Below the pieces are notes generated by a model. That model was given only the letters and a program-made list of their open reading frames with translations, did no database searches and was not told where the DNA came from. This document shows, piece by piece, positions 10,574-60,813 of a stretch of DNA of 64,000 nt; the stretch's first letter is position 1; every line of letters begins with the position of its first letter. The position numbers were made by a program, and so were the translations under genes. The stretch comes from an uncultured delta proteobacterium (GTDB lineage: Bacteria > Desulfobacterota > RBG-13-43-22). Location of the stretch: positions 6,159 through 70,158 of the forward strand of contig CAWIRY010000186.1 in assembly GCA_963838485.1 (NCBI GenBank), given 5' to 3'.

Positions 10574-13095
10574 TTAGAAACTAATCCTCCGGTAAAAGAT
10601 TTTTTTTGCCCCTTCGGCGGTAATAATATACATCCCCACAATGACGGCCATCAAAGGAATAAAATACAACGGTAAGACCTCGAAGCCGAATATCTCTCCC
10701 AAAGGCGTATAGGGAATGAGCAGGGTGGCTATGGTCACCAACAAGGTGGCCAGAGTCAGGGCCTTACCCGGTTTGCTTTTAAAAAAGGGCTGGCGGGTGC
10801 GTATCACCAGCACGATTAAGGCAGCCGATATAACCGATTCGATAAACCAACCAGTTCGAAATTGAGCGGGTCGGGCCTTGAGGAGGAACAAAAGGATACC
10901 GAAGGTCAGGTAATCGAAGATCGAGCTGATCAAGCCGAAGGTAATCATAAAATTTTTAATAAACCGGATGTTCCAGCGCCTGGGTCTTTCCACCAATTCC
11001 CGGTCCACCCGATCGGTGGCAATGGTCAACTCAGGGAAATCGGTCAGCAGGTTGGTCAGCAGGATCTGCTTGGGAAGCAATGGAAGAAAGGTCAGAAAAA
11101 GGGAGGCCCCGGCCATGCTGAACATGTTGCCGAAATTGGCACTGGTAGCCATAAAGACGTACTTAAGGGTATTGGCAAAGGTGGTCCGGCCTTCACCGAT
11201 GCCCTGGGCCAGGACCTTTAGATCCTTTTCCAACAAGACGATATCGGCCGCTTCTTTGGCCACGTCCACGGCCTGATCGACGGAAATGGCCACGTCGGCG
11301 GCATGAAGGGCCGAGGCGTCGTTAATCCCATCCCCCATATAGCCCACGACATTGCCTGTTTTTCTCAAGGCCAGAATAATACGTTCTTTCTGGTTGGGTT
11401 CGACCTCGGCAAATATGTCCGTCTCGTTGACTTTTTGAGACAAGGCCCGATCGCCGGTCTTTTGAAGTTCTGGGCCGGTGACTATTTTCAGATTCGAAAG
11501 CCCCATCTGTCCGCCGATGGCAGCCGCTACCAGCCGGTTATCTCCGGTAATGATCTTTAAAGAGACCCCCAGATCCTTAAGTTGATTAATGGTCTCCACA
11601 ATTTCTTTTTTGGGCGGGTCAAAGAGGACCAGGAAGCCTAAAAAGATCAAGTCCCTCTCCTGGTCTCTGGTCAGGACGAGCCCAGGTTCCACCTCCCGAT
11701 AGGCCACCCCGAGCATGCGGAAGCCCTGTTGGCTAAAATCTTTGAAATGGGCTTGTATCTGCTCTTGACCTTGGGTGAGGTCTGCTTGGGTTCCGTCGGC
11801 CCTTTCCACTCGGGAACAGACGGTCAGGACATTGGATAAGGCTCCTTTGGTGATCACCAGGTGCCTGTCCCCCGGGAGACCAGGATGCTCAATCGTTTGC
11901 GAATAAAATCATAGGGCACTTCGTCGAGCTTCTGATAGCCGGAGAGATCAAAGGTACGGAAGTTGCAAATGGCCTGGTCGATAGGGTTGGTAAAGCCCGA
12001 CTCGTAATAAGCATTCAAATAGGCATAAAGCAGGACCTTTTCATTGTCCCGGCCTTCCCAATCCAAAGCCGAGTGGACCTTGACCGATCCTTCGGTTAAG
12101 GTTCCGGTCTTGTCGGAACACAAGACATTCATGCTACCGAAGTTTTCAATGGAGGATAAACGTTTGACAATAACCTTTTCCCGGGCCATTTTCTTGGCCC
12201 CATGGGCCAGGTTGATGCTGATGATGGCCGGTAAAAGCTGAGGAGTCAACCCGACCGCCAGGGCCAGGGAAAAAAGAAAGGATTCCAGGACCGGCCGGGC
12301 CAAGTAGACATTGATGGCAAATATGGCCATAACCAGGGTTAGGGTGACCTCCATAAGGAGATAGCCGAAATGTTTAACGCCGTGTTCGAATTCCGTCTCC
12401 GGGGCTCGGATTTTAAGCCTTTCCGAAACCTTGCCGAATTCGGTTTCTATTCCGGTGCGGACCACGAGGGCCTGGGCGTTGCCGCTGACCACATGGGTTC
12501 CCATAAAAAGGGTGTTGGTCCTTTTGGCCAGGGGGATTTCCGCGGTCAGGATCGCGGCCATTTTTTCAACCGGATAGGTTTCTCCGGTCAAAGAGGCCTC
12601 ATCCACAAAGAGATCTTTGGAATCCAGAATTAATCCGTCTCCGGGTATGACATCTCCGGCATTAAGCCGGATGATATCTCCGGGAACGATCTGTTGGATG
12701 GGGATTTCCTTAGCCGTTCCCTCACGCAAGACCGTGGACTTAATCTGGATTATGGCCAATAATTTTTTGATGGCATCGGCTGCTCCCCGTTCCTGCCAAA
12801 AGCCCAATAAACCGCTGACCAGAACAATAGTCAAGATAATCAGGGCATCGATCGAATCTTGAAGAAATAGAGATAACCCGGCTGCAAAGATCAGGATAAG
12901 GATGATGGGACTTTTAAATTGACCGAGCAGAAGGGTGAAGGCACCCGATTTTTTAGGCGGCTTGAGAAGATTATAGCCATATTCCTCAAGCCTCTGTTGA
13001 GCTTCTGTTTCAGTCAACCCTTGTGGAGAGGTTTTCATCTCCTGAAATAATTGATCAGGAGGGAGACTCCAAAAGGCAAGTATTTTTTGATTCAT
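10574..13095 (-). pseudogene. mgtA: Mg2+-importing P-type ATPase (MgtA type), split by a 1-nt frameshift as assembled
   Basis: ORF 11854..13095 carries the N-terminus, TGE region, GLTPQLLPAII and CSDKTGTLT. ORF 10574..11857 carries GDGINDASAL and the C-terminal TM helices. Reading ..ILVS(P)GDRHLVITKGA.. restores continuity if one base is added in the tcccggggg run near 11857-11875. Confidence 0.8.
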
Positions 13096-13116: not shown

Positions 13117-15536
13117 TTACAATCCGAACCTTCTGAACAGATAATATTTGGGGAAATCAATCCCGAGCGTAAAGAGTACGGAGAATCCTAGAACGGCCAC
13201 GACCTGATAGGGGGTGACGGATGGGACAAAGATACCGTAGATACCCAGCAGGGCAAAGCCGATCAGGGTCGCTGCACTCAGGATAATTAATTCCCGGCTC
13301 GGGAATGAGGACCAGAAGTGTCTCCGCTCCCTTACGATCAATACCCTGAACTGACTGTTGAACACCAGGTTCAGCATGACCAGGGTGCGCAGCCTTTCCC
13401 ATTCCAAATGGAAATAGTTCAAACCCATCAGGATCACCAGCAGGTCTTCCACAATCAGAAGCATGCCCGGAACGAGCGAGGCCAGAGTAATATTCTTGAC
13501 ATTCCACTGGTTCGGGTTGGGCGTATGCTTCACATGGTCGGTTGCCAGGGACATGGTTACGAAATCGTTGGCAAACACCAGCAGCGCCATCCCGAGGAGA
13601 GAGAGCACAATTTCATGGAGCCAGAAGAAACCCAAGGTCAGTAAACCAACAAATTCGATAACTTTGGTGACCTTGTTAAAACCCAGGTGAGCATTCGCTG
13701 ATAGGTCTGCCTGCTTATGGTTATGGTATCAATGATGACACCGATACCCGGTTCGGTCAAAACCACGCTGGCAGAGGCCTTGGCCACGTCAGTGGAATTG
13801 CTCACCGCTACTCCCATCTCGGCCTGCTTCAACGCCGGCGCATCATTGACTCCGTCGCCGGTCATCCCGACCATGTGCCCCCTGGATTGCAGAAGCTTGA
13901 CGATTTTATACTTGTCCTCAGGATATATCTCGGCAAACCCGTCGCTTTCTCCGACCACCTTGACCCGTTCATCTTCGCTTAAGGCCTCGATATCCGCCAT
14001 CCGGATAATGTTACCGCCGATTCCTGTCTGAACGGCGATCTCTCTACCTATGGCGATATTGTCGCCGGTAAGCATCATCGGCTTTATCCCCAGTCTTCTG
14101 GCTTCCTCTATGATGCGCTTCGAATCCGGCCTGGGCGGATCAGCCAGAGGCAGCAATCCCGCCAGTTTGAGATCGTTCAGGTCATCTCCTTCCGATCGGG
14201 CCACGGCAATCGTTCTGAATCCTTTCCGGGAAAACGCTTCGATCATCCCGTCGGCCTTCTCCCGGTCCGCTTGGTTTATTCCTTGGCACAGGGATAGGAC
14301 CACCTGGGCGGCGCCTTTAACGACCCTGAAGCGCTTTCCGGCCCCTTCGATAATCGCCTCCGTTCTCTTAATGGACGGATTAAAAGGGGTGTATTCGATC
14401 TGCCGGTAGCCGCTAAGATCAAATCCTTTTATTTTAGCATATTCGATTACCGCCAGGTCTATGAGGTCCATACCCTCCTCCTGAGAGGCTAAGGCGGCTA
14501 AGGCAAAAACATCCTCTTGCCTATATTCGGAGAAGGGCAGGCCGTCGATAACCGATAATCTATTTTGAGTTATCGTCCCGGTCTTGTCGAGGCAAAGGAC
14601 ATCAATGGATGCGGCATCCTCGATGGATGCCAGTCTGGTCACCAGCGCTCCCCTTTTGGCCAGCTCCATGGCTCCGACCGACTGGACTATGGACAGAACG
14701 GCCGGAAGGGCCACAGGGACCGCCCCCATGAGGAATATCACGGCGAAGGTCAGTATTAATAGAATACCGGCATGGATCACCAGGGCATATAGGGAGACTA
14801 AGATCGCGGCGGCTATACCCAGAACCATCATATTTTTGACTATAGCCATCATCACCTCGTCCTGATGGGATTTCGGCCTGGCTATTTTGACCAATTCGGT
14901 TGTTTTACCGAAATAGGTATTGGCTCCGGTATTGACCACCAGACCTCTGGCCTCTCCCCGCACCACTACCGAGCCGGCGTAGAGGATATCCGATGGATGG
15001 CTCTTTACAGGCAGGGATTCTCCCGTCAGGGCCGATTGATCAACGGAAAGTTCGCCACTCATCAATACCGCATCGGCCGGTACGATATCCCCAAGTCCGA
15101 CAGTGATAACGTCTCCGGGCACGATCTCTTTAGCCTCTTTTATGACCCATTTCCCGTTTCGCAAAACCTTGGCCTTGATGGCCAACTTTTTCTTGAGAAG
15201 CTCGACGGCCCTTTGGGAGCCCCTTGAGTGGAGGTGACCTATGACGGCATTGACCGTCAAAAGAACAAAAATGATGATTCCTTCCAGGTCATGTTTCAGG
15301 ACGAAAGAAAGCGCCATGGCCAGCTCCAGCAGCCAGGGCATTGGCCCCCAGTACCGCAGCAGGAATTCAAGAAAGGGATTCTTCTTTTTCTCTATGATTT
15401 CGTTGTATCCGAACCTCTCAAGGCGCTTTTCGACTTCGGACTCCGTGAGACCCGTTATGGAGGCCTCCAGGGACCTGAGGGTCGCCTCCATGGAGATTTT
15501 TTTATACTCCGAAGTGCTTCTGACTTTATCATCCAT
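13117..15536 (-). pseudogene. Type IIIA (plasma-membrane H+-ATPase-like) P-type ATPase, split by a 1-nt frameshift as assembled
   Basis: ORF 13638..15536 has LTGESLPV, CLDKTGTITQNRL and TGDGVNDAPALKQAEMGVAV. ORF 13117..13635 holds the last TM helices. An extra A in gttttaa(a)caagg (about 13676-13681) gives a continuous ..RMLTWVLNKVTKVIEFVGLLTLGFFWLHE.. Confidence 0.75.
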
Positions 15537-21258: not shown

Positions 21259-23389
21259 CTAAGCATTCTGCAAGGCCTTGAGATAAAATTTATCAATATA
21301 CTCTTTAACCATCCGGCGGGCAGAGAACCTGGGGGCGTTGGTTTTTATGGATTCTTTCATCACCCGGATCCAGCCGTGGGGCAGGCCATTATTGGACAGT
21401 TGGTAAAATAAAGGGATGATTTGTTTTTCCAACAGCTCATAGATCGCCTGGGCATCTTGGGGATCTCGGTCCCCGGCTATTTCTTTTTCACCAAAGGCCC
21501 AGCCGTTTTTCCCGGTATATCCTTCCACCCACCACCCATCCAGGATACTCAAATGAGGGACCCCGTTCAGGGCGGCCTTCATCCCGCTGGTCCCGCTGGC
21601 TTCCATGGGGGGCAGGGGATTGTTCAGCCAGACGTCGACCCCGTGTACCAGGTATTGGGCCAATTGTTCCCCGTAATCTTCGACAAAGGCGACCCGCCCT
21701 CCCATCTGGAAATCTTTGGGCGGCGTTAAACACCCGCTGCAGGACCCGTTTTCCCGGATCATCGGCCGGGTGGGCCTTGCCGGCAAAGATGATTTGTATT
21801 GGCCGCCGGGGATCATTGAGCATTTTTTTAAATCGCTCCAGGTCCTGAAAAATCAAATCGGCCCTTTTATAAGTGGTGAAACGGCGGGCAAACCCGAGGG
21901 TCAGGACCGACGGGTCCAGCAAGGTCCCTCCGCTTAAAATGGTCGAGGGGTTGACCCGGTCGGCGGCCCAGCGCTGGCGGGCCTTCTCCCGGATGATGTT
22001 GATCAATTTTAACTTCAGCCAGTAATGGGTCTTCCAAAGCTCCTCATCGGGGATGGTTTCCACCTTCTCCCAGACCAGGGGGTCATCATGGTCGGCCAGC
22101 CAGTCCGGCCCGAGATATTTATTAAAAAGGAGTTCCATCTTTGGTTCAATCCAGGTCGGGACATGAACGCCGTTGGTGACGTGATCGATCGGCACGTTCT
22201 CTTCCGGCATTTGGGGCCAAAGCCCCTTCCACATGCGCCGGGCCACTTCTCCGTGTCTTTTACTGACCCCGTTGCTAAAACCAGAGAGCCTGAGGGCCAG
22301 GGCGGTCATGTTAAACCCGGAAGTTGGATCCTCAGGATGGATCCCCAATTTGAGGAAGGCATCGTGATCAATGCCTAAGGTCGGCCAATAGGAACGGAAA
22401 TATTTTTCGATCAGGGGGAAAGGAAAGATATCATGGCCGGCCGCGACCGGAGTATGGGTGGTAAAGACCGAGGTGGGCCGCACCCGTGAAATAGCTTCCT
22501 CATAAGGCATTCCCTCCTGGACCCGCTCCCTGACCCGCTCCAGGAGGGCGAAGGCGGGATGTCCCTCGTTCAAATGTAAGACCGTATGCTTAATGCCTAA
22601 AGCCGAAAGCACTTCATAGCCGCCGATGCCCAGGACGATCTCCTGGCGCAAACGCTGCTCCAGGTCGCCAATATAAAGATGGGCCGATATCCCCCGGTTC
22701 CAGGGATCATTGATCGGGATATCCGTATCCATCAGATAGAGCGAGATGCGGCCTACGGCCACTTTCCAAACGGCCACATGGATCGGGGGTTCGATAAAAG
22801 GGATCTTGACGACCATTTGGTCTCCGGCCTCACTCAAAACCCGGGTAATCGAGGCCGCATCACGATCCAGGATTTCATCCGGATTTTCCTGCCAGCCGTC
22901 CTCGCGAATCTGCTGCCGCAGATAACCCTCCGGATACATAAACCCTACGGACACCATGGGCACCCGGAGATCGCTACATTCTTTAAGATAGTCACCGGCT
23001 AAGAACCCCAAGCCTCCGGCATAAAAAGGCAGGGAATTATGCAGCCCGTATTCGGCCGAAAAATAGGCGATAAAATGGGTTTCCGCATCGGGGATCCTCT
23101 CTACAAAACAATTTTCCTTCGTCTCCTGATCCCGGCGGAATTGTTCCAGGACCGAATCATAGTGTTGAAGATATTCCGGATTATGGGCAGCTTCCTCAAG
23201 AATTTCACCGGGAAGCTCAGAAAGGACCTGGACCGGATTATGCCCGCTCTCCTTCCAGATCTGGCGATCCAACATTTTAAAGAGCATCCTGGCGGCCGGA
23301 TGCCAGCTCCACCAGAGGTTGGCGGCAATTTCATTAAGACCCTTTAGCTTTTCCGGAATATGAGGGAATTGTTTTTTGCTGTCATCCAT
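21259..23389 (-). pseudogene. glgP: Alpha-glucan (glycogen/maltodextrin) phosphorylase of the GlgP TIGR02094-like type, frameshifted as assembled
   Basis: ORF 21488..23389 has an N-terminus (..NLWWSWHP..) typical of alpha-glucan phosphorylases. ORF 21259..21816 carries ..GGRVAFVEDYGEQLAQYLVHGVDVWLNNPLPPMEASGTSGMKAALNG.. The frames join as ..VFNAAKDFQMGGRVAF.. if one base is removed near 21708-21724. Confidence 0.8.
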
Positions 23390-28023: not shown

Positions 28024-30429
28024 ATGACCTGGGCATCAAACTGCACGGTAGTCTCACCCACTCAGTTGTGGTCGGCCGCTTCGACCCTTTCTCCCCGCGT
28101 GCAACAGCTTCGCCGGCAATTCTGGTCCTTTTATGAGCGGGAATACACCAACGAAGTGCGCGCTTACACCACCGGCACGCCCTGGGATGTGGTCTATTCC
28201 ATCTGGAGTTGGACCAATGTGCCCGAGATCGCCCTGTTCCAGCAGGGGTTCCGCAGTTATCTCCGGGCCGCGGCCAAGACCGTCGAGTTACCGTCCGATT
28301 TTTGTGAAGAGCCTCTGGTCGTTCGCCAGGCCCTTTTCTTTCGTCAAGTCGTACAGGCCTGCTTGCCGGTTGAAATCCTGCAGGGGGAGCTGATTGTCGG
28401 CTCCCATTTCAATACGGCCCTTTCGCGCTGCCTCAAAAAAGATGAAGCCCGTTCCCGGGACCGGGAAGAACAAAAATTCCTCGAAGCTTGGAATGAACTC
28501 AACAAGGCCGGGGTGGGAAACTGCGGCGCCGTTCCCGGTCACCTGGTGCCCAATTATCCCAAGGTCCTGAGGGTCGGCTGGAAAGGGATTGAAGATGAGG
28601 CCCGGGTTATCTTCAATGATCCGGCGAGTTCAATGGAGCAAAAGAACCTGGCCCGGGCCGTCATGATTTCCGCCGAGGCCGCCCGCGATCTGGCCAGTCG
28701 CTATGCCGATAAAGCCCAAGGCCTGGCTGAGATTGAAGCCGACCCGATTCGCTGGGAAGAGCTCATCGGGATCGCCCGCATCTGCCAAAAAGTCCCCTGG
28801 CTGCCGCCCGAAACATTCCCAGAGGCCCTGCAAGCCCTCTGGTTCACCCACATGTTGGCCATGGCCGCTGAAAGCTATCCGGGGCCGGGCCTGTCGCCGG
28901 GACGGGTGGACCAGTACCTCTATCCCTATTACCGGGCGGATCGAGAGGCTGGCCGCCTGACGAATCAGGCCGCCCGCGAGTGGCTGTACTGCTGGTGGAT
29001 CAAGCACAACTATGTTTATGATTATCAGGGCTGGACCGGCACCAATCAGGGCATCAATTCATCCTTCGGCCAGCTCATCACCCTGGGCGGCATGGATGCC
29101 CAGGGCAACGACGCCTCCAATGAATTGACCTTTCTGATGCTCGAGGTGATCGAGGAGATGAACCTCCTGGAGCCCAAGCCCAACATCCGCATCCACGCCC
29201 GCACCCCCGATAAATTACTCGACCGCCTGGTGGCCATGTTGGCCAGAGCCCAGGGTTCCCCCTTTCTGATCAATTTTGACGAGAATGCCATGGCCGGGCT
29301 TGGATGGCAGGGCCTGCCTGAAGAACGCCTCTGGGATTACGCACCGGTGGGCTGTCTGGAGAACACCCTGGCCGGCGATGACCGCTCGGGCACGGTGGAT
29401 GTGAACCTGAATCTGGCCAAGGCGATCGAGCTGGTTTTAAACGATGGCCGCGATATGGCCACGGGCAAACGTATCGGACCGCGCACCGGTGACCCTAAAG
29501 AGTTTCCAGGGTTTCCCCAGTTTATGGAGGCCTTTAAACAACAACTCCAAGCCATCCTCTTGAAGCTCATCGCCGCCAACAACCTGGCCGACGCCGGCCG
29601 GGCCCGGTGGGAACCGGTGTCTTACTTGAGCGCCCTGGTGGACGGCTGTCTGCAAAGCGGCCGTGATTGCAACGCCGGCGGGGCTCAATATAATTTTCTG
29701 ACCGTGGAAGGGGTGGCCCTGGCCACGGTGGCCGACAGCCTGGCGGCCATAAAAAAGCTGGTCTTTGAGGATCACCAGGTGGAAATGGGGAATTTGGTTG
29801 AAGCGATCCAGGCCAATTTTGAAGGCCAGGAAAGCCTGCGCCGGATGTTGCTGACCAAGGCCCCCAAGTACGGCAACGACGATGGATATGCCGATGAGAT
29901 CGCCCGGGAGGTCAGCCGCTTTTGGACCGAAGAAGCCTTCAAACATTTTTCTTCCACGGGGAAGCGCTACCGGGGCGGTTATCTTTCCTGGAATTACTGG
30001 ATTGCCTATGCGCCGTCAACGGCCGCAACGCCGGACGGCCGCCGCCGGGGACAGTTTCTCTCCAACGCCGTCTGTCCGGTCAACGGGGCCGATTGCCAAG
30101 GGCCGACCTCGGTCATCAAGAGTGTGGGCAAACTGGGACTGGAGACCGCACCCAACGGGTCCAGCCACACCATGAGTTTCAGCCCGACCTTGTTTCGCAG
30201 CCCCGAGCAACGCCAAAAACTGAAGGCGCTTTTACGGGCCTACGGCCAGGTGGGCGGAACCTGCCTGCAGGTCAACATGATAGACGCCGAAACCCTGCGG
30301 GAGGCCCAAAAGTTTCCCGACGAATATCAGAATTTGCTGGTGCGGGTTACGGGTTACAACGCCTATTTTGTCGGCCTGGGCAAGGAAATTCAGGACGAGA
30401 TCATTGCCCGTGAGTCGCACCCGGTTTAA
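28024..30429 (+). CDS. Glycyl radical enzyme (PFL-like superfamily), eliminase/dehydratase-like active-site pattern, substrate unknown
   Basis: 801 aa. The C-terminal glycyl radical motif is ..LLVRVTGYNAYFVGL.. The Cys loop ..APVGCLENT.. has a C-x-E arrangement, as in the 1,2-eliminase-type GREs. Strong RBS (gggagg). An activase gene follows. Confidence 0.85.
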   Translation: MTWASNCTVVSPTQLWSAASTLSPRVQQLRRQFWSFYEREYTNEVRAYTTGTPWDVVYSIWSWTNVPEIALFQQGFRSYLRAAAKTVELPSDFCEEPLVVRQALFFRQVVQACLPVEILQGELIVGSHFNTALSRCLKKDEARSRDREEQKFLEAWNELNKAGVGNCGAVPGHLVPNYPKVLRVGWKGIEDEARVIFNDPASSMEQKNLARAVMISAEAARDLASRYADKAQGLAEIEADPIRWEELIGIARICQKVPWLPPETFPEALQALWFTHMLAMAAESYPGPGLSPGRVDQYLYPYYRADREAGRLTNQAAREWLYCWWIKHNYVYDYQGWTGTNQGINSSFGQLITLGGMDAQGNDASNELTFLMLEVIEEMNLLEPKPNIRIHARTPDKLLDRLVAMLARAQGSPFLINFDENAMAGLGWQGLPEERLWDYAPVGCLENTLAGDDRSGTVDVNLNLAKAIELVLNDGRDMATGKRIGPRTGDPKEFPGFPQFMEAFKQQLQAILLKLIAANNLADAGRARWEPVSYLSALVDGCLQSGRDCNAGGAQYNFLTVEGVALATVADSLAAIKKLVFEDHQVEMGNLVEAIQANFEGQESLRRMLLTKAPKYGNDDGYADEIAREVSRFWTEEAFKHFSSTGKRYRGGYLSWNYWIAYAPSTAATPDGRRRGQFLSNAVCPVNGADCQGPTSVIKSVGKLGLETAPNGSSHTMSFSPTLFRSPEQRQKLKALLRAYGQVGGTCLQVNMIDAETLREAQKFPDEYQNLLVRVTGYNAYFVGLGKEIQDEIIARESHPV

Positions 30430-30496
30430 TGGAATCCTAAAAAGTATCCATCCGGAAACTATAACTTTCAGGATGGAGCGCTCAGCCATCAGCTTT

Positions 30497-30565
30497 TAGC
30501 TTTCAGCAAAATCCTTTATCATTGGGGAGTTTGGCTAAATGCTGACCGCTGACTGCTGAAAGCTA
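30497..30565 (+). repeat. Stem-loop built from gctgaaagc-type repeats between the GRE and activase genes
   Basis: TAGCTTTCAGC (30497-30507) pairs with GCTGAAAGCTA (30555-30565). Flanking gctga/cagc repeats extend the arms (30483-30570). Confidence 0.45.
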
Positions 30566-30613
30566 TCAGGAAATCTTGGATTTCCGGATGAAAACTAAAA
30601 AGGTTGACAGACT

Positions 30614-31558
30614 ATGACTTCCGGCCTGATCTTCAATATCCAGCAATTCAGCACCGAAGACGGACCAGGCATCCGAACCACGGTCTTTCTTAAAGGCTGT
30701 CCCTTGCGCTGCCCCTGGTGTCACAACCCGGAAGGCCTGCGCCTCAGGCCCGACCTGATGTGGTACGATGTGCGCTGCATCGGAGCCAGAGATTGCCTGA
30801 GCGCCTGCCCGGAAAAGGCCTTATCCCTCTCCTCGGAAGGGATACGGATCGACCGGGAGCGCTGCACCTTGTGCTGCCTGTGCGAGAAGGCCTGCCCGGC
30901 AGCGGCCCTGGAGGTGATCGGCCGTCCCTTTACCCCCGATGAATTGATGGACGAACTTTTGAAAGATCAGGTTTTCTATGAGACCTCAGGCGGAGGCATC
31001 ACCTTCAGCGGCGGCGAGCCGATGTTGCAGGGGGAATTCCTCAGCCAGGTTATGATGCTCTGTAAACAGGCCGGGATGCACGTAGCCCTGGATACCAGCG
31101 GTGCCGTCTCCTGGGAGCGCTTTGAGCCGGTCTTACCCTGGGTGGACCTGGTGTTGTTCGATTTAAAAATCATGGACAGTGAGCGTCATCAACAGGCCAC
31201 GGGCCTCTCAAACACCATCATCCTGGAAAATGCCGGGCGAATGGCTGCCAGTGGAAAACCGATGTGGATTCGAACGCCGATCATCCCCGGTTTTACCGAT
31301 GATGCGGAAAATATCCGGGCTATCGGCGGTTTTATCAGTCAAGCTTTGCCCACGGTGCAGCGTTGGGACTTGCTGGCCTATACCAATTTGGGAAAACCCA
31401 AATATCATCGTCTCGACATGCCCTATTGGTTGGAAAGGACGCCACCGTTGACCCGAGCCGAAATGGAAACCTTACATCAGGCCGCTGTTGAACTGGTGCC
31501 GACGGCTTTATGGTCCGGGGCGGCCAGGCAGAATCAATCGCCATCATCGGAAGACTGA
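30614..31558 (+). CDS. Glycyl-radical enzyme activating enzyme (radical SAM) with a ferredoxin-like 2x[4Fe-4S] insert
   Basis: FSTEDGPGIRTTVFLKGCPLRCPWCHNPE (CX3CX2C). The insert carries CIGARDCLSACP and CTLCCLCEKACP. GGGITFSGGEP SAM motif. Confidence 0.9.
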   Translation: MTSGLIFNIQQFSTEDGPGIRTTVFLKGCPLRCPWCHNPEGLRLRPDLMWYDVRCIGARDCLSACPEKALSLSSEGIRIDRERCTLCCLCEKACPAAALEVIGRPFTPDELMDELLKDQVFYETSGGGITFSGGEPMLQGEFLSQVMMLCKQAGMHVALDTSGAVSWERFEPVLPWVDLVLFDLKIMDSERHQQATGLSNTIILENAGRMAASGKPMWIRTPIIPGFTDDAENIRAIGGFISQALPTVQRWDLLAYTNLGKPKYHRLDMPYWLERTPPLTRAEMETLHQAAVELVPTALWSGAARQNQSPSSED

Positions 31559-40221: not shown

Positions 40222-40746
40222 CTATTTCCCCCCGATGGCTTTCAATATTTCTCCCAGGGCATCCCGGGCGATGGCCCTCATTTCATCATCCGTTCTATCC
40301 TGAATGGGATGGGGAACATACACGGCTGCCGGCTCATAGCCAAGGGCCCGCGCTTGGGACTCCCCAGCCTCCTTAAATTCTGCTGAGGCCACATAAACGC
40401 CGGCCACTCCCCGCCCTTCCAGATCAACGATGTCATGCACACTGCACGACGTGCATGACCCTCAATCGGCAAGGGCTTCAATCACCACATCACATTGGGA
40501 TCTGATCTCCTGTTTAAGTTCAAGGGGAGCCACTCTGGCGAAAGTCGGTTTTTGATACCGCCTGACTTTCAGGCCTCGTCCGGTAAGTTGCTTCTCCACT
40601 TCGTCTAAAAAAATGTCCCCCCGGGGTTTGGAAATATTCAACAACCCGATGGTCCTCCCCTTCAGATCCCCGGGACACCTTAACCGTTCCCGCATCTCCG
40701 GTGATCGTTCGGCCGTGGGGTCCAGCAAAAAGGTGGTTTGCTTCAT
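40222..40746 (-). CDS. UGSC-motif selenoprotein (174 codons) with an in-frame TGA at 40462-40464 read as Sec
   Basis: ATG at 40746 with aaggag 7 nt upstream. Reads MKQTTFLLDP..VVIEALAD-[TGA]-GSCTSCSVHDIVDLEGRG..ILKAIGGK*, with ORFs 40462.. and 40222..40440 in the same frame. A perfect 9-bp hairpin begins 2 nt after the TGA. I recall a 'UGSC family (seleno)protein' label in NCBI annotation, but that is memory, not a search. Confidence 0.7.
40432..40459 (-). promoter_or_regulatory. SECIS-like stem-loop immediately 3' of the in-frame UGA
   Basis: Minus-strand RNA: UGA-GG-GUCAUGCAC-GUCGUGCAGU-GUGCAUGAC. This is a 9-bp perfect stem with a 10-nt loop that begins with GU. Confidence 0.6.
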
Positions 40747-42183
40747 GATCGAATCTCCTTGGTTACGGGTTGGCTTCCTCTTAGAGCCGCTGGCCAGCCA
40801 GCCGCCGATAATGGCCGAAAACCGTCCGGCCGTACCCCCGGCATGAACCAGGATTAGACCTCCGGAGCGAAATTTGGGCAAGGTCAACTCCATCATTTCT
40901 TCAGGGATGCCCTCGGCGATTCCCTGGGCCCCCCGCACGAGGTCTTTACCGGGAATTTGAAGCAGGCTGTCCAGTTCTTGCCTGAGCCTGAACTTGGTCC
41001 AGCCGGCTTGTTGAAAGATCCGACCGTGTTCCGGTGATACCACCAAAAGGGCGTCGGCGGCCATGGGGATCTTGGGGTGGGCCACGGTTCGCAGGCACAA
41101 GGCAAAGGTCCGGGCCAGGGATTCGGGTGTCCTGGAAAGCTGGTCAACCACGGCTTGAACCCCGTCTCCGGCAAAAAGGGTCACCGTGGATGTCCCTTCC
41201 GGAAATCCCCGTTCCATGGAAAGGGGTTCCCAGGGGGAGCCCGCCTCATTCTCGGCAAAACAAAAGGTATACTTGCCGGGATTCCCCAGAGCGGCCCGGT
41301 CAATCTCTCCCGGCCTTCCACCTCCTACATTCCGGACCACCAACTGGAGGGCCCGGCCGATCGTGGCATTGGCCCGGTTCCCCTGCCCGAGGGCGTTGAC
41401 ACCGGAGTTCATTCCAATGGCCCTGGAAATGGGACCGTTGACGATCACCACCGGACCGGAAAAATAGGTTGTGGCCAGGAGACCGTGCAAACAGAATTCA
41501 TCCAAACAGGCGGCTTCTATGGCGGCCAGAACGACCGGCAGGTACTCCGGTTTACAGCCGGCCATGACGGCATTGATGGCCACTTTCTCCACGGTACAGG
41601 CCGCCTGGTTGGGCGGAATGATTCCGACCAATTCGTCCGGAGATCTTGGTGTTCCTTCAAGCATGTGCACCACACGGACTTCGGTAGGAGGAACGACCGG
41701 CAAGCCGTCTGTCCATCCATGGGCAAAACAGGTTTCCATGTCGTCTTCCAAAGGCGGCGCGGCTATGCGCCGCGAGGCCAGATGGACCCCCCCAAAGCGG
41801 ACAGCCAGTTCCTCCGCAATCCCGGGTTCGACATTCTTCGAGCCGCAACCCGGACGAAAAGGGGCCAGCCCTTCCCCCAGTCCTTTGATCCCGGTCATGG
41901 CGCGCCATTCCTCCCGGTCCCAACCGACAATCCTCCTGGTTTCCTTGCCGTTTTCCATAAGAATCAATGTGGGGACCGTCTCAATCTGGAAATGGAAGGA
42001 TTGTTCCAGCGTTGTATCGTTGATGACACCCGCTAGGCCATCCGGAAACCCAGGGTCATCCTGGGTATAGATGGTCAGGATCCTGTTTCCTGTCCTGATC
42101 TCTTTCATGACCGGCACAATCATCGTGCAGGTGGCGCAGTCCTTTTTACAAAACAGAATTAATCCATCTCCTGGTTGCTCCAT
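40747..42183 (-). CDS. Thioredoxin-fold domain (CATC) fused to a roughly 400-aa uncharacterised domain, 3' boundary unresolved
   Basis: Likely start is the ATG at 42183 (MEQPGDGLILFCKKDCATCTMIVPV..). The conserved-looking core ..AHGWTDGLPVVPPT..AINAVMAGCKPEYLPV.. has no family I can name. As assembled, the ORF runs without a stop into the UGSC gene. A -1 frame would end at a TGA overlapping that ATG (..SQPVTKEIRS*). Confidence 0.55.
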
Positions 42184-42288
42184 CACTTGCCTTCCGATTC
42201 GTTTTTGGGGAATCTTTGAATTATATCGGCATCGATTCGAGGTTCGAAACTCGAATTGAGTTGATAAGGGATTGTTTTTGATGGGTAG

Positions 42289-42317
42289 AGTATAGGATAA
42301 GAAAAAAACCGGGTCAA
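42289..42317 (-). promoter_or_regulatory. Sigma70-type promoter candidate for the thioredoxin-like/UGSC operon
   Basis: On the minus strand: TTGACC (42317-42312), a 17-nt spacer, then TATACT (42294-42289), about 105 nt upstream of the ATG at 42183. Confidence 0.45.
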
Positions 42318-42340
42318 GGAGAAATGCAGGGCCGAATTGA

Positions 42341-43677
42341 ATCATATTAAATGTTACCGAAGGGGTTAAAATAGAGGGATCGTTGACTCATAATTAAAGT
42401 TACCGAGGAAGTTTCTCGGTAGGAGGTAATTAATTATGAGTCCCCAATCCAAAAAAGAATACCTGGCAGCCATTGTTAAACGATATAAGAATGCGTCCAG
42501 ATCCGGGAAGCACCTCATTTTGGATGAATTCTGTGCTGCTACCGGTTATCATCGAAAGCATGCTATTCGCTTGCTCAGAGGCTTTAAGCGGTTCACCAAA
42601 CCCCAGCCTAAGCGTCGTGGCCCTAAGCCCGTCTACCACTCTCCAGAGCTCTTAAAAGCCCTAAAGAATATTTGGCTGGCCGCTAATCTGCCCTGTTCCC
42701 CCCGGTTAAAAGCCTTGTTGCCTTTATGGCTGTCCAGTTACGCTCCCACCTTCGGGGTACTGGCCTCCCAGGTTTTAAGGGACCTGGAAAGGATCTCTGT
42801 CGCCACCATAGGGCGGTTGCTGAAACCCGTCCGCAGCCAGTATAAAAAACGAGGCCGGGCCACTACCAAACCCGGCACGCTCCTGCGAAAACAAATCCCC
42901 CTAAAAACCAACCAGTGGGATGAATCCCGGCCTGGCTTTTTGGAAGCCGATACCGTCGCCCATTGTGGAGACTCAATGGCTGGCATGTTCGCCTTTACCG
43001 TAGACGGCGTCGATATCGCCACCGGTTGGACCGAACAACGGGCGGTCTGGGGAAAAGGTGAATCCGGTGTCCTGGAACAAGTCCATCATATCGAACAATC
43101 TCTACCTTTCCCCTTACTCGGATTCGATTGTGATAATGGCGGCGAATTCTTAAACTACCATCTCTTCAGGCACTTCACCGAAAGAAAAAAGCCCGTCCAA
43201 TTTACTCGTAGCCGTGCCTATCATAAAGACGACAATGCCCACATCGAACAAAAAAACTGGACCCACGTCCGCCAGTGGCTGGGCTATGATCGCTTGGATA
43301 ACCCCAAAGTCGTTCCCCTCTTAAATGACCTCTATACTCAGGAATGGCGCCTTTTTCATAACTTCTTCTTGCCCTCGGTCAAACTGCTGGCCAAAGAAAG
43401 AATTGCTTCTAAAACCATCCGGCGCTATGATCCTCCTAAAACCCCTTACCAGCGGGTTATGGAATCCCCTTTGGTAACGCCGGCTATTAAAAGGGAACTC
43501 ACGGCACAGCTCAAAACCTTGAACCCCTTTCAGTTGAGAGCAGCCATTGAGATGAAGCTTAAAAAAATCTTCCAAACTCAAGAACGAAAGGATAGGTTAA
43601 TCCCTAACCCTCGGTAACATCCATTATGAGTCACTGATTTCCTACTTCACTCCCTCTGGGTAACATTTAATTATGAT
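42341..43677 (+). mobile_element. Insertion sequence of about 1.34 kb with one DDE (rve-type) transposase and doubled terminal repeats
   Basis: Outer inverted repeats ATCATA-TTAAATGTTACC (42341-42358) and GGTAACATTTAATTATGAT (43659-43677). Inner copies TGACTCATAATTAAAGTTACCGAGG (42384-42408) and CCTCGGTAACATCCATTATGAGTCA (43609-43633) match at 21 of 25 positions. No clear target-site duplication was seen. Confidence 0.7.
42436..43617 (+). CDS. DDE transposase (integrase-core/rve domain), possibly IS481- or ISNCY-like
   Basis: RBS aggagg. N-terminal HTH-like region (..ILDEFCAATGYHRKHAIRLLR..). Candidate catalytic residues in FLEADTVAH, GFDCDNGGEF and HIEQKNW. The family name is uncertain. Confidence 0.75.
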   Translation: MSPQSKKEYLAAIVKRYKNASRSGKHLILDEFCAATGYHRKHAIRLLRGFKRFTKPQPKRRGPKPVYHSPELLKALKNIWLAANLPCSPRLKALLPLWLSSYAPTFGVLASQVLRDLERISVATIGRLLKPVRSQYKKRGRATTKPGTLLRKQIPLKTNQWDESRPGFLEADTVAHCGDSMAGMFAFTVDGVDIATGWTEQRAVWGKGESGVLEQVHHIEQSLPFPLLGFDCDNGGEFLNYHLFRHFTERKKPVQFTRSRAYHKDDNAHIEQKNWTHVRQWLGYDRLDNPKVVPLLNDLYTQEWRLFHNFFLPSVKLLAKERIASKTIRRYDPPKTPYQRVMESPLVTPAIKRELTAQLKTLNPFQLRAAIEMKLKKIFQTQERKDRLIPNPR

Positions 43678-55921: not shown

Positions 55922-57019
55922 TTAAACCTGGCTGGCCTTAACGGCTTCCCGCAGGGCTTTCTGGTCAAGAGGGGGCGGTAAAATATCGGCCCTTTCAACC
56001 AGGGTAATGGCCTCAAAATCACAGCCGGTGGCACACACCCCGCATCCGATGCACCGGTCTAAATTCAATTCCGGCTTATCTTCATCTCCCATGGTTAGGG
56101 CTTCGGTGGGACACCGATCGACGCAGGTGCCGCAAGCGGTGCACAGATCGAAATCATGCCAGGGTTTAAACCCGGAATTCATCGCCAATCCGGGTTTCGG
56201 CTGGGCCAAGGCGGTTTTCAGCATCATGCAATGACAGCCGCAACAGTTGCACAGAAACTCGATCTCCTGACGATTGACGGTTGCGTGAACCAGGCCAGCC
56301 TCTTCCGTTTTATTGAGGATCTCCCGGGCCTCTTCTTTGGAAATCTGACGGCCTATTTTCCGATCAATGAGAAACTGGGCACCTATCCCGAAGGTCATAC
56401 ACACGTCATCCGGTTTTCCACAATCGTCCTTTTCATCGAGTAATTTGGCCTCATGACGGCAAAAACAGGTGGCGACCGCCAGAGGTTGGTATTTTTCAAT
56501 ATAGGAAGCCACCTGCTGATAGGTGTGGATGGTATTTTCGGCCTGAATTTTTTTATCCACGGGGATTACCCGGCTGGTCGGATAGGTCTCCTTAGGAGGC
56601 CCTTGTCCGGCATCCAGGGCCAATTTGTAGGCATGAATCAGCTTGGCGAGGTTTTTATCCCTTTCCGTTTTCGAACCCCTCATGAATTGGTATTCAAAGA
56701 TCCCGGGCACAAAAACCGGTGCGCTGTAAAAAGTGACCCCGCCCATGGAACCGGCGGTGCAAAGACCTTTATCGGCCATGGCTTCCAGAATGGGTCTTAC
56801 TTCAGCAACGGATTTGCCCATGACCTTGGCAACGGCTTCGGCGGGATTATAACCCTTGGGGATCGCATTATAGACTGCCGCCTCCTCCGGGGTAAAAAGC
56901 TCTTCAACAAGGGCATAAAATTCGGGGATATCCTTACCAGGGTATCTTCCGTGCCTTTTAGCCAAGACCTCGCATAGTTCATGATACACTTTTTCAGCCA
57001 TTTCTTTTCCCCCTATCAA
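55922..57019 (-). CDS. Cys-rich Fe-S protein with a C-terminal 2x[4Fe-4S] ferredoxin domain, function unknown
   Basis: Central CFCRHE..DDCGKPDDVC..CNCCGCHC cluster. The C-terminus carries CTACGTCVDRCP and CIGCGVCATGC. Confidence 0.7.
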   Translation of the reverse strand: MIGGKEMAEKVYHELCEVLAKRHGRYPGKDIPEFYALVEELFTPEEAAVYNAIPKGYNPAEAVAKVMGKSVAEVRPILEAMADKGLCTAGSMGGVTFYSAPVFVPGIFEYQFMRGSKTERDKNLAKLIHAYKLALDAGQGPPKETYPTSRVIPVDKKIQAENTIHTYQQVASYIEKYQPLAVATCFCRHEAKLLDEKDDCGKPDDVCMTFGIGAQFLIDRKIGRQISKEEAREILNKTEEAGLVHATVNRQEIEFLCNCCGCHCMMLKTALAQPKPGLAMNSGFKPWHDFDLCTACGTCVDRCPTEALTMGDEDKPELNLDRCIGCGVCATGCDFEAITLVERADILPPPLDQKALREAVKASQV

Positions 57020-57116
57020 AGTTTTGATTTGATCTCGGCCATGTTGGCCCGATGATTATCGATTCGGAAATATCCAGGTTAGCCGCCTGAGCACAAGACA
57101 CATCATCCTGCTGATC

Positions 57117-58139
57117 TTACTTCGGCGCCGTCCGCATCATCCCCGGCACAATCCTGACCTCTTTACGGGGATTTCGTTTGGCCTTTAATTCCGCTTTCGA
57201 TCCCGCCATGACATAAACCCGTTCCTGACGGTCCCTGAGGGGTTTCAGCACCCTTTCAACGTGTTCCTTCTTATTTTCGAGATAAACCGGTTTGACTTCT
57301 TCTCCCGCCGGACAAACGGCCATACAGTAGCTGCAGCGGTAGCTCATCCGAAACATCAGAGACTGCCACATGAAAGCCGTCTCCCGATCGTTGAAATGGG
57401 ATCGATATTCCGCCATGTCCTGCGAGGAAACCATGGCTTCCACCCAGTTCTGAAAGCCGGTCATGTTGTCCCGGTAAGTGTGGGTGATACAGGCCGAAAA
57501 ATCAAAAGGCTGGTCTTTGGTGATGGCCCCGGTCGGGCAGACCACGGCGCATAGATTGCATTTGATGCAGGGATTCTCCGTCAGCGGACGGTCGTATCGA
57601 TCCAACAGGCCATTAATCAGGATACTGTCTAATTGGATGCAACTGCCGTATTTCGGATGCAGGACGAGCCGGTTCAGGCCCATGTGCCCGAGACCGGCCT
57701 CCACGGCCATGATCTTATGGCTCACGTCCCAGATTTTCCCCGGATACCGATCCAGGTCCATGGGCCATCCCTTGTTGACCACCACCCCCCGGATTCCGAT
57801 TCGGTTCAAGCGTCGAAGAATTTCTCGCGAAAGGTCGGAAATCTTATCCCCCGTGTGATGGTATTCTTCATTGGCCACATAGCGAGCCGGGCTTTGAAGG
57901 GTTTCCCGATTATTGGTCGTAATAATGGAAATGATACTGCTGGTCAGAGAGTAAACGTGTAATATCCCCTCTCGCTCCTTTTGCAGCGGCTCCCTCTCCA
58001 TATCCACCAGTCCCACATCGTCGGCCCCGGCCTCGAGGCAGATCTTTTTGATCGCCTCCGCGGAATAAGTCCTTTTTCCCTCTCCCTCGCCAGAACCCTT
58101 CATGTCCGAACCCAAATTTTTCTTCCCTTCTGTTTTCAT
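57117..58139 (-). CDS. QueG / reductive-dehalogenase-superfamily Fe-S protein (epoxyqueuosine-reductase-like)
   Basis: ..SHKIMAVEAGLGHMGLNRLVLHPKYGSCIQL.. followed by CIKCNLCAVVCPTGAI and ..CSYCMAVCPAG.., the QueG-like layout. Overlaps the stop of the molybdoenzyme gene. Confidence 0.65.
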   Translation of the reverse strand: MKTEGKKNLGSDMKGSGEGEGKRTYSAEAIKKICLEAGADDVGLVDMEREPLQKEREGILHVYSLTSSIISIITTNNRETLQSPARYVANEEYHHTGDKISDLSREILRRLNRIGIRGVVVNKGWPMDLDRYPGKIWDVSHKIMAVEAGLGHMGLNRLVLHPKYGSCIQLDSILINGLLDRYDRPLTENPCIKCNLCAVVCPTGAITKDQPFDFSACITHTYRDNMTGFQNWVEAMVSSQDMAEYRSHFNDRETAFMWQSLMFRMSYRCSYCMAVCPAGEEVKPVYLENKKEHVERVLKPLRDRQERVYVMAGSKAELKAKRNPRKEVRIVPGMMRTAPK

Positions 58140-60370
58140 AGGGCCTCCACTCGGCAGGGTACATAGCGGTGCATCGGCGTCCCCAGGAAGTCCCGGTTGG
58201 TGTTTTTCGTCAGGCGATTCACGTTGACCCCGTGGGCCTTGCCGTCATAAACCAGTCCAAAACCATGGGGGATAGCCACGTGACCCTTGCGGGCCGTTTC
58301 GGTAACCTCCAGTTCAACCTCCAAGGAACTAGCCTCGGTGGTCACCCGGACCTGCTGACCGTCCATGAGCTTCAAGGTTTCAGCGTCGGCCGGGTGCATG
58401 GCCAGGGTGCAGGCCCTTTTGCCCGCGTTCCAGGCCGGGTCCCGCATGAGGGTGTTGGCGTTCATGGAGGTGTGGCGTCCGGCCATGAGAATCAGGGGAA
58501 ATGAGGGATCGGGCCTCAGGGCCACTTCTTCCTGCTCGGCATCGATCCCCTTGACCGTATCTATAAGCTCCGGGATATATAAATCGATCCTGCGATCTTC
58601 GGTTTGAAGATGACCGAAATTATTGTTCGGGTCCACCTGTCCGACCCAGAGGCCTTCCGGATGGTCGATAATTTTCTGAAAGATCTCCTCACCCAGACCC
58701 ATTCCCGGGGTAAAGCCTACCCGGGCGGCGTTTTCCTGAAAGGCCTTGGGCGTGGTCTGAAGGATTCCCCAGAGCGTGGCCAGATGAACGGACCCCATGC
58801 CCTTTCCCAGGGTTTTTCCGAGAATAAAGGGCAGGACCTTCAAGGCCGCCGGTTCTTTCTGTGCATAGGCCATAAGGGCCGCACCAAAGGCCGCCCGGCT
58901 TCCTTCGGCGGCCTTATAGAGACTCTCGGGGATGGGTGGGATCAGGCCCAATCGATCGGCCAGCCGAAGATGGATCTCTCCGGCTTCCAACGGCTCTCCG
59001 TCGGGTTCAATGATGGGCCTCCGCATCTGGAAAAAGATGCCCGGATAAGTAAGGGCAAAAAAGATCCCGTCCCAGGACTCAAAACCGGACCGGGCCGGAA
59101 GCACATAGTGGGACAATAAGGCCGTTTCCGTCATGGCCAGCTCGGAAGTCACCAACAGATCCAGACGCTTGAAGGCCTGTTCATAGGCCGTGGTATCCGC
59201 GTAGGAACGCAAGGGATTGGAGGCGGAGACGATGACCGCCCGCAGACGATCCGGGCGATCGGAGAGGATCTCCTCGGGCATGGCATTGGGTGGAAAGGTG
59301 GCCGAGACCGGGAATATATTGGTGGTCATGGTCCGCCAGGTCTTGGGATTCCGCTCATCGGAATGGGCGCCGGTAGGCATCAAATGGCCGGGGAAAATGG
59401 TGCCCCCGGGCACACAGATCCGCCCGCAGATGGCTTGTAAGGTCGCGGCCAGGTAGGATGAGACGGCGCTGTGGCGATTCATAAAGAGGCCGAGGTCATA
59501 ACGCAGAGTGGATTTGCGGGTGGCAAACAGACGGCTGATCTCCTGGACCTGATCGAAATCAAGGTGACAGGTCCGGACAGCCGACCGGGCATCAAAATTC
59601 GTATACAACGATTTTATGTTCTCAAACCCGGAGGTATGATTTTCGATATAGTCTTTTTTTTCCCAGCCTTCCTGGAGGATAATGGCGATCATGGCCCGAA
59701 GGAGAAGGGCATCCGTTCCCGGCCGAATCGGAAGATGCCTGTCGGCGATCTTGGCCGTTTCGGACAGGCGGGGGTCAACGACAATAAGGAGTTTATTAGG
59801 ATCCTTGGAGATACGCTGAAGGTGCCGGGGGGCCTGGGGGATCTGGTGGCTCTGCATACCGTTCCACCCTAATATCAGAAAGAGGTCCGTTTCCGCCACA
59901 TCGGGCACTCCGTGCAAATATTGTCGGCCGAACATGCGACCATGAACCCAGAACATCCCGGAAAATTCCTGGGCCAGGGCGCTGTAGTGATAATAAGAAC
60001 CAAGCCCCCTTAATAAACGGACCCCAAAGGCGGCCTCAAAATGACATCCCTGGCCGCCGCCGCCCATATAAGCAAAAGATCGGGGGCCGTACTGATCGAC
60101 GATGCCCTTGAGTTTGACGGCGATCTCACCAATGGCCTGATCCCAGGAGATACGCTCAAAACGGTCCCCCACCCGCTTCAAGGGGTATTTAAGACGATCG
60201 GCATGATGCTGATGATAAGCGACATTCATCCCTTTTCGGCAAACATACCCTTGGCTGCGGAGATTTTCCTTGTCCCCTTTAACCTTAACAATACGGTTGT
60301 TTTCGACTTCCACTTCCAGACCGCAGTTCTGGGCGCAAAGAACACAGCTTGTTTTGTGGGTTATTCCCAT
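58136..60370 (-). CDS. Cytoplasmic molybdopterin (bis-MGD) oxidoreductase with an N-terminal [4Fe-4S] motif, substrate unknown
   Basis: N-terminus HKTSCVLCAQNCGLEVEV..VCRKG (CX2CX3C..C). 744 aa, no twin-arginine signal. RBS aggagg. No in-frame TGA. Confidence 0.8.
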   Translation of the reverse strand: MGITHKTSCVLCAQNCGLEVEVENNRIVKVKGDKENLRSQGYVCRKGMNVAYHQHHADRLKYPLKRVGDRFERISWDQAIGEIAVKLKGIVDQYGPRSFAYMGGGGQGCHFEAAFGVRLLRGLGSYYHYSALAQEFSGMFWVHGRMFGRQYLHGVPDVAETDLFLILGWNGMQSHQIPQAPRHLQRISKDPNKLLIVVDPRLSETAKIADRHLPIRPGTDALLLRAMIAIILQEGWEKKDYIENHTSGFENIKSLYTNFDARSAVRTCHLDFDQVQEISRLFATRKSTLRYDLGLFMNRHSAVSSYLAATLQAICGRICVPGGTIFPGHLMPTGAHSDERNPKTWRTMTTNIFPVSATFPPNAMPEEILSDRPDRLRAVIVSASNPLRSYADTTAYEQAFKRLDLLVTSELAMTETALLSHYVLPARSGFESWDGIFFALTYPGIFFQMRRPIIEPDGEPLEAGEIHLRLADRLGLIPPIPESLYKAAEGSRAAFGAALMAYAQKEPAALKVLPFILGKTLGKGMGSVHLATLWGILQTTPKAFQENAARVGFTPGMGLGEEIFQKIIDHPEGLWVGQVDPNNNFGHLQTEDRRIDLYIPELIDTVKGIDAEQEEVALRPDPSFPLILMAGRHTSMNANTLMRDPAWNAGKRACTLAMHPADAETLKLMDGQQVRVTTEASSLEVELEVTETARKGHVAIPHGFGLVYDGKAHGVNVNRLTKNTNRDFLGTPMHRYVPCRVEAL

Positions 60371-60390
60371 ATATCCTCCTCCTGAAAAAA

Positions 60391-60813
60391 TTACCGGCTA
60401 AATTGTTCCCGCAGTTTATGAATAAGACCGCGCAACTCGCGCTTTTCATTTTCCGTAAAGGCCGCCAGGAATTCTTTGTTGGCCTCCTCGATCAGCTTCC
60501 TGGCCTCCAGTCCCGTCTCTTTCCCCTGCTTAGTCAGATGGATCTTTATGGAACGCCGATCATCGGGATTTCCCTTGCGTTCGATGAGCCCGGCCGCTTC
60601 CAAACGATCCAGAATGCCGGTCAAGGTGGCGCTGTCTAATTCAACCTTTTTCCCTAATTCACCGGCCATGATCTGATCCGCCTCGGCCAGGAATCCAAGG
60701 ACCATGGCCTGGACCGGAGTGATGCTGAGCCCCGATATCTTCTGGGTCATAAATTTTATGCCGGTCTGACTGGCTTTGGCTAATTGAAAAAAAATACAAT
60801 TATCGGATTTCAT
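60391..60813 (-). CDS. MarR-family transcriptional regulator
   Basis: 140 aa with a winged-helix pattern ..ITPVQAMVLGFLAE..MAGELGKKVELDSATLTGILDRLEAAGLIERK..DRR... Lies 20 nt upstream of the molybdoenzyme gene. Confidence 0.85.
   Translation of the reverse strand: MKSDNCIFFQLAKASQTGIKFMTQKISGLSITPVQAMVLGFLAEADQIMAGELGKKVELDSATLTGILDRLEAAGLIERKGNPDDRRSIKIHLTKQGKETGLEARKLIEEANKEFLAAFTENEKRELRGLIHKLREQFSR

Follow-up and report, generated by a model that had tools for sequence, protein, structure and literature searches.

A very probable UGSC-family selenoprotein gene with a shifted candidate SECIS and a conserved, translationally coupled partner gene

In the 64-kb stretch of DNA analyzed here (hereafter the window), the minus-strand segment 40746..40222 very probably encodes an ordinary, selenocysteine (Sec)-decoded member of the UGSC family, with a SECIS shifted from the hairpin that first meets the eye. 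The gene (40222..40746, minus strand) comprises 174 codons, with Sec at codon 95 and the stop codon TAG at 40224..40222, as delineated by translation, HMM searches, and full-length Cys-form homologues. Translation of 40746..40222 gave MKQTTF...VVIEALAD-stop-GSCTSCSVHDIVDLEGRG...GGK-stop, that is, 94 residues, a stop, and 79 residues, which reproduces the joined reading ..VVIEALAD-U-.. proposed earlier from the DNA letters (hereafter the sequence-only reading). Profile searches using the 174-aa protein with U replaced by C matched NF041046, "UGSC family (seleno)protein", at 150.5 bits, above the curated cut-off of 125, with protein residues 30–171 aligned on profile positions 2–146 of 147, and PF24696, "UGSC family", at 143.2 bits (cut-off, 25); a PDB sequence search with the same protein gave no relative. 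The core of the sequence-only reading, a UGSC-motif selenoprotein cut at its Sec-UGA by gene callers, is therefore upheld by the family match, the homologues, and the conservation of the codon. The description of the gene as "hidden" did not hold, as the family is already in NCBIfam and Pfam and has figured in selenoproteome papers since 2007. Thus, the UGSC-containing protein appears as a selenoprotein of unknown function in the 2007–2008 papers by Zhang and Gladyshev (PMC1976440, PMC2398784), and a 2026 review has UGSC under NF041046, still without a function (PMC13188914). In agreement with the earlier remark that the function is uncharacterized, our full-text literature search retrieved eight papers mentioning the family and no functional study among them. 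The locus is one Sec-containing UGSC gene in an already catalogued family and hence not new, the low novelty following from the existing curation of the family. Added here are a covariation-supported, shifted SECIS, a conserved and sometimes fused partner, and a probable indel joining both genes; a description of the conserved partner gene or of the SECIS covariation was not found in the searchable UGSC literature.

The open reading frame 40462..42345 (minus strand) terminates in the TGA at 40464..40462, and the open reading frame 40222..40440 (minus strand) shares its frame, as the sequence-only reading had noted. Also as noted there, the downstream frame contains no ATG, its GTG at 40440 lies within a hairpin region, and no Shine-Dalgarno sequence is found upstream of that GTG. 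The assignment of the start to the ATG at 40746, preceded by the Shine-Dalgarno sequence AAGGAG (40755..40760, minus strand) and opening a 174-codon gene, was likewise reproduced, except that the spacing was counted as 8 nt and not 7 nt. This AAGGAG, which lies within the end of the partner gene described below, is largely kept in an alignment of eight relatives, five of which have it exactly.

The reading of the in-frame UGA (40462..40464, minus strand) as selenocysteine, the U of UGSCTSC, draws its main support from the homologues. Protein searches returned Cys-form homologues of ~180 aa, which run continuously through the Sec site (..EALADCGSCTSC..), together with ~95-aa database entries stopping at ..EALAD and entries beginning with MHDIVDLE. 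On the encoding contigs, the short entries are neighboring 94-aa and 72-aa gene calls; because both match the single Pfam UGSC domain, we regard them as two parts of one gene, divided at the TGA. The entries ending in ..EALAD, a kind of homologue that the sequence-only reading had named as potentially contradicting it, are accordingly mis-called halves of Sec genes. A scan of one genome per species yielded at least 576 UGSC loci, the best 80 of which belong to Desulfobacterota, Actinomycetota, Chloroflexota, Gammaproteobacteria, Myxococcota, and Acidobacteriota; the Gammaproteobacteria among these 80 include the cultured Halopseudomonas, Marinobacter, and Pseudohongiella. In a pattern search of 84 related loci, GAY-TGA-GGN-WSN-TGY-AC matched 83, and none of the 84 had TGY at the Sec codon. 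The comparison of Cys- and Sec-containing homologues suggested earlier thus showed that the Cys-form proteins have Cys here and that 83/84 loci have TGA.

Residues other than Cys and Sec were also seen at this position, namely W, R, or G in the database homologues P0002, P0003, P0015, and P0016. The codons for these residues (TGG, CGA/AGA, and GGA) are each one base from TGA, and the residues may reflect genuine substitutions, sequencing errors, or translation under an alternative code. Reading of TGA as Trp under an alternative genetic code was rejected because the partner genes of the relatives terminate in TGA.

It is extremely improbable that the TGA is a true stop, separating two small genes or marking a decayed pseudogene, for example after loss of Sec decoding. 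Such a reading would accord with the public gene calls, which give 94-aa and 72-aa products, and with the search for Sec machinery in the window: selA, selB, and selD were not found among ~50 window ORFs scanned against NCBIfam or Pfam, Rfam detected no tRNA-Sec or SECIS family in the window, and ARAGORN detected no tRNA-Sec there but only a tRNA-Arg. However, a 64-kb window cannot decide whether the genome has sel genes, let alone show their genome-wide absence, and the downstream half is devoid of both an ATG and a ribosome-binding site. Moreover, the TGA and the hairpin are kept in 83/84 loci across phyla, both halves fall in one Pfam domain, and the Cys forms are continuous. Since neither sel genes nor tRNA-Sec were found in the window, we infer Sec decoding in the source organism from its relatives. 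In Halopseudomonas pachastrellae, selA (TIGR00474, 570 bits; L020 3538..4917) lies directly 3' of the UGSC gene, and therefore Sec machinery and a UGSC selenoprotein are clustered in a cultured organism.

Two overlapping hairpins follow the UGA, and a 76-nt stretch of this region folds at −34 kcal/mol with z = −3.4 relative to shuffles. The 9-bp hairpin that the sequence-only reading had pointed out (40432..40459, minus strand) is present as described: the arm GUCAUGCAC (40459..40451), which begins 2 nt after the UGA, forms a perfect stem with GUGCAUGAC (40440..40432), and the two enclose a 10-nt loop, GUCGUGCAGU. Energy minimization of the free mRNA in this lineage yields this fold. The existence of the hairpin is thus confirmed, but it probably does not act as the SECIS; an overlapping, conserved hairpin of SECIS type, GUCGUGC-AGUGU-GCAUGAC (40432..40450, minus strand), is better supported. 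The stem of the latter, 7 bp long or 8 bp if an A-U pair closes the loop, begins 11 nt after the UGA, and its loop, which contains an invariant G-U, begins 18 nt after it.

The support comes from alignment A5, which spans 78 nt around the UGA (columns 16–18) in 82 loci and provided 77 distinct sequences for the analysis of pairing. The conserved hairpin (columns 30–36 / 42–48) was paired in 97.4% of the cells over the 77 distinct sequences, and none of 500 shuffles was as good; compensatory changes were found in three pairs, the only ones that count as independent covariation because the peptide SCTSCSVHD also constrains most stem columns. Thus, at columns 33/45, A occurs only with U (6/6), and at columns 36/42, C-G is replaced by U-A in Marinobacter. 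RNAalifold recovered the core of this hairpin unprompted, and G38 and U39 of its loop are invariant in the 82 sequences. The calculated energy is −9.1 kcal/mol for the window sequence, −10.9 kcal/mol for the consensus, and only −6.1 kcal/mol for Marinobacter. Furthermore, the synonymous sites just 3' of the UGA are nearly frozen (ACG, UCG, UGC, AGU where the residue is Ser, and GUG), the codon after the second Cys being AGU in A5 wherever it encodes Ser; this near-invariance of synonymous positions indicates selection at the RNA level. By comparison, the 9-bp hairpin (columns 21–29 / 40–48) was paired in 74% of the cells across the relatives, no better than shuffles, and disruptions of its four outer pairs affect between a third and three-quarters of the 77 distinct sequences. 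It needs a UCA Ser codon together with a CAU His codon, which are common to few lineages; judging from the alignment, its outer half is lineage-specific. A third hairpin, UGCAC-GUC-GUGCA (5 bp with a 3-nt loop), was considered and rejected, as it offers no explanation for the invariance of G38 and U39 and was not the choice of RNAalifold.

The published model of the bacterial SECIS has an apical loop of 3–9 nt on an upper stem of 4–16 bp, a G in the first two loop positions that is usually followed by G or U, a UGA-to-loop distance of 16–37 nt, and an energy of −7.5 kcal/mol or lower (PMC13188914, Fig. 2A). The conserved hairpin is a candidate SECIS that agrees with the model throughout: it has a 5-nt loop on 7 bp or a 3-nt loop on 8 bp, a loop start of A-G-U-G-U, a spacing of 18 nt, and an energy of −9.1 kcal/mol. 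The 9-bp hairpin lies outside the model in its 10-nt loop (3–9 nt required) and its 11-nt spacing (16–37 nt required). We therefore consider the conserved hairpin at 40450..40432 likely to be the recoding signal, so far as sequence comparison can indicate. It is quite unlikely that in this lineage the 9-bp hairpin (40459..40432) serves as the SECIS or as an extra element modulating recoding, a role for which its perfect stem, its standing as the minimum-energy fold here, the GU at the start of its loop, and its occurrence in the closest relative (L001) could be adduced. Against it stand the breakage of the outer pairs and the departures from the published model (PMC13188914) given above; already in the next relative (L002) it contains a mismatch and a wobble, and its 5' arm would probably already have entered the ribosome once the UGA occupies the A site.

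In the free RNA of the window, the 9-bp hairpin (−16.3 kcal/mol) is favored over the conserved one (−9.1 kcal/mol), and the two are mutually exclusive because they share the 3' arm. A possible course of events during translation would reconcile this with a role of the conserved hairpin. Presumably, when the UGA enters the A site, the first ~11 nt downstream are unwound, by which the 5' arm of the 9-bp hairpin would be melted, leaving the conserved hairpin able to fold at the mRNA entrance. With this hairpin as the likely signal, SelB and Sec-tRNA(Sec) most likely decode the UGA at 40464..40462 as selenocysteine. As a caution, the most striking hairpin that follows a UGA when one sequence is viewed alone is not necessarily the conserved, functional element.

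Upstream of the UGSC gene lies a partner gene (40743..42183, minus strand), assigned by homologues, synteny, and fold, which encodes a thioredoxin-like N-terminal domain followed by an uncharacterized domain of ~370 aa. The gene starts at 42183 (MEQPGDG..); its homologues number more than 8000 and are typically 479 aa long and end in ..GSRGSQPVTKEIRS. The sequence-only reading had noted a thioredoxin CxxC in the neighboring gene; indeed, the N-terminal domain carries the redox motif C-A-T-C (Cys16/Cys19; 42127..42138, minus strand), which is invariant in 20 homologues. The AF2 model of the partner, moderately confident with a pLDDT of 72.6, has a thioredoxin fold over residues 1–100, for which thioredoxin structures in the PDB were matched with a TM of about 0.6 on the target. 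A PDB sequence search with the partner matched the thioredoxin domain and nothing for the rest. The ~370-aa C-terminal domain gave no significant PDB fold neighbor, no NCBIfam family, and no Pfam match at E up to 10. The TGA of the partner gene and the ATG of the UGSC gene overlap as ATGA (window 40746..40743) in 8/8 aligned relatives, and the invariant partner motif GQGNRAN precedes the UGSC gene on the same strand in at least 75 of the 84 UGSC loci, the other neighbors of the pair varying between loci. As judged from this arrangement, the partner and UGSC genes are a conserved, translationally coupled pair.

Several further genes were observed around the pair. A gene for an FMN oxidoreductase of the NMO family (PF03060) adjoins it in several lineages (L002 6271..7236, L085/L086 5982..6875, and L087 6111..7004); in L087 it overlaps the start of the partner gene, and in the window the NMO-family gene is not adjacent. 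This flavoprotein may be a third component. Directly upstream of the partner gene in the window is a divergent 393-aa ORF (42436..43617, plus strand) with no Pfam or NCBIfam match at E ≤ 1e-5, and in L001 a 384-aa gene adjoins the pair in a similar placement.

Among 1.84 billion representative proteins, a profile search picked out natural fusions such as P0217 and P0210, in which a Cys-form UGSC-like domain comes first and is followed by the partner C-terminal domain. The UGSC-like domain of P0217 and P0210 is 34% identical to that of P0001, a Cys-form homologue (E = 2e-20), and the partner C-terminal domain shows 40–43% identity (E = 4e-70 and 4e-68). In these fusions, the UGSC domain occupies the place that the thioredoxin domain has in the 479-aa protein; the ~370-aa domain is fused to thioredoxin in the Sec systems and to UGSC itself in the Cys systems. 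By inspection, Cys210 (MAGC[KR]PEY) and Cys308 ([FM]C[FIM]AE) of the partner are kept in both P0217 and P0210, and Cys226 is kept in P0217 and not in P0210. The single-chain fusions P0207, P0210, P0217, and P0287 have CGSCTAW, CGSCTSW, or CGSCSAA, the third Cys being lost. These proteins are probably the "UGSC/Unknown_1 fusion" noted in the GOS paper, with Unknown_1 presumably corresponding to the partner C-terminal domain. Collectively, the conserved adjacency, the translational coupling, and the fusions show that UGSC and its partner are functionally linked.

In the window, no stop separates the partner from the UGSC gene (ORF 42345..40462) because of one extra T at 40783 (minus strand; GGCTC-T-AAGAGG), as revealed by alignments A2 and A8 with eight relatives. 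This T puts the partner out of frame 40 nt before its stop, so that its last 13 codons are read in the UGSC frame; taken literally, the sequence would encode a 653-residue fusion protein. At least three further minus-strand genes of the window are each divided by a frameshift at the very point where the family profile carries on, namely those for an alpha-glucan phosphorylase (23389..21488 and 21816..21259; profile 1–452, then 454–600), a Mg-type P-type ATPase (13095..11854 and 11857..10574; profile 17–426, then 434–864), and an H+-type P-type ATPase (15536..13638 and 13635..13117; profile 1–601, then 621–743), which suggests an indel-prone assembly. Because of these genes in the same 64 kb and because the T is absent in the eight relatives, the extra T is probably an assembly indel and the locus two genes.

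If the T were genuine, the product would be a single 653-residue protein composed of thioredoxin, the uncharacterized domain, and UGSC, with Sec at residue 574, made alone or beside a stand-alone UGSC protein translated from its own ribosome-binding site. We regard this as unlikely, although only the UGA interrupts the frame between 42183 and 40222, the T does not lie in a homopolymer run, both domains are naturally fused in other organisms, and a 651-aa ORF in another dataset (P0155) has the same partner-then-UGSC order. The natural fusions, however, have the opposite order with UGSC first, and P0155 looks frameshift-ridden, with long stretches seemingly out of frame; moreover, the T is lacking in 8/8 relatives, one of them 94% identical, and the frameshift-split genes of the window weigh in the same direction. 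With the locus taken as two genes, the annotation should give one Sec-containing gene in place of the 94-aa and 72-aa fragments, and the frameshift in the partner needs checking.

The fold of the UGSC protein was modelled by AF2 on P0001, the Cys homologue, which is 60% identical to the window protein. The model (pLDDT, 87.6) consists of a (beta-alpha)5 flavodoxin-like domain, in which C/U-G-S-C is located between the strand of residues 87–93 and the helix of residues 96–111. Its best fold matches in the PDB were generic flavodoxin-like proteins with TM ≤ 0.52, and no thioredoxin was among the 50 best fold matches listed. The predicted fold is thus flavodoxin-like and not thioredoxin-like, in contrast to the thioredoxin-like fold guessed in the UGSC literature. 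In the model, U-G-S-C-T-S-C would stand where a strand ends and a helix begins, a position typical of redox-active nucleophiles.

From the gene pair and the fusions, UGSC may be the dedicated selenol redox subunit of an undescribed two-component enzyme in which catalysis would be carried out by the ~370-aa domain of the partner, and not a free-standing antioxidant; we put this somewhat short of an even chance. UGSC and its partner would constitute a dedicated selenol/thiol oxidoreductase pair. The large domain of the partner would bind the substrate, the Sec/Cys pair of UGSC would perform the redox reaction, and the selenenylsulfide so formed would be recycled by the thioredoxin-like domain, a division of labor that we propose a shade more tentatively still. 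The UGSC family is among the commonest selenoproteins of aquatic metagenomes, without a known function, and the two-component reading, if true, would offer a concrete handle on the function of this abundant aquatic family. The family is made experimentally approachable by the coupled partner gene, the natural fusions, and the cultured Halopseudomonas and Marinobacter with selA beside the pair.

Two other gene groups of the window were recorded. At 28024..31558 (plus strand), a gene for an 801-aa, PFL2/HypD-like glycyl-radical enzyme precedes that for its radical-SAM activase. At 55922..60813 (minus strand), genes for a MarR regulator, a molybdopterin oxidoreductase (FdhA/PhsA-like, 744 aa), and two 4Fe-4S proteins are located together, the molybdopterin oxidoreductase gene showing no obvious in-frame TGA at its start.

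Compared with known systems, the window gene is a member of the UGSC family, as evidenced by the full-length match, the same U-G-S-C motif, and a similar size of ~175 aa, and shows no essential difference from it; Sec forms predominate both in the family (255 Sec versus 21 Cys in the GOS survey) and here (83/84 loci). The candidate SECIS resembles that of the E. coli fdhF type in that it likewise lies within the coding sequence just after the UGA and has a small apical loop with G and then U, but it shares no sequence similarity with the fdhF element and contains no bulged U. The minimal E. coli fdhF element has a gap of 11 nt between the UGA and the stem, equal to that of the conserved hairpin. 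Unlike bacterial SECIS elements in general, the window element is overlapped by a stronger competing hairpin in this lineage, and it matches no Rfam family. As for other selenoproteins with a comparable motif, GrdB and PrdB of the glycine and D-proline reductases (PF07355) have no detectable sequence relationship to UGSC, which gave no PF07355 match at E up to 10, and differ in gene context, no gene for a pyruvoyl subunit or a GrdA-like protein being found near UGSC. GrdB has the motif U-x-x-C-x-x-C, and its system is recycled by thioredoxin-type dithiols. PrdB has a U-x-x-C motif (PMC2398784). A multi-component arrangement is common to these reductases and the UGSC system.
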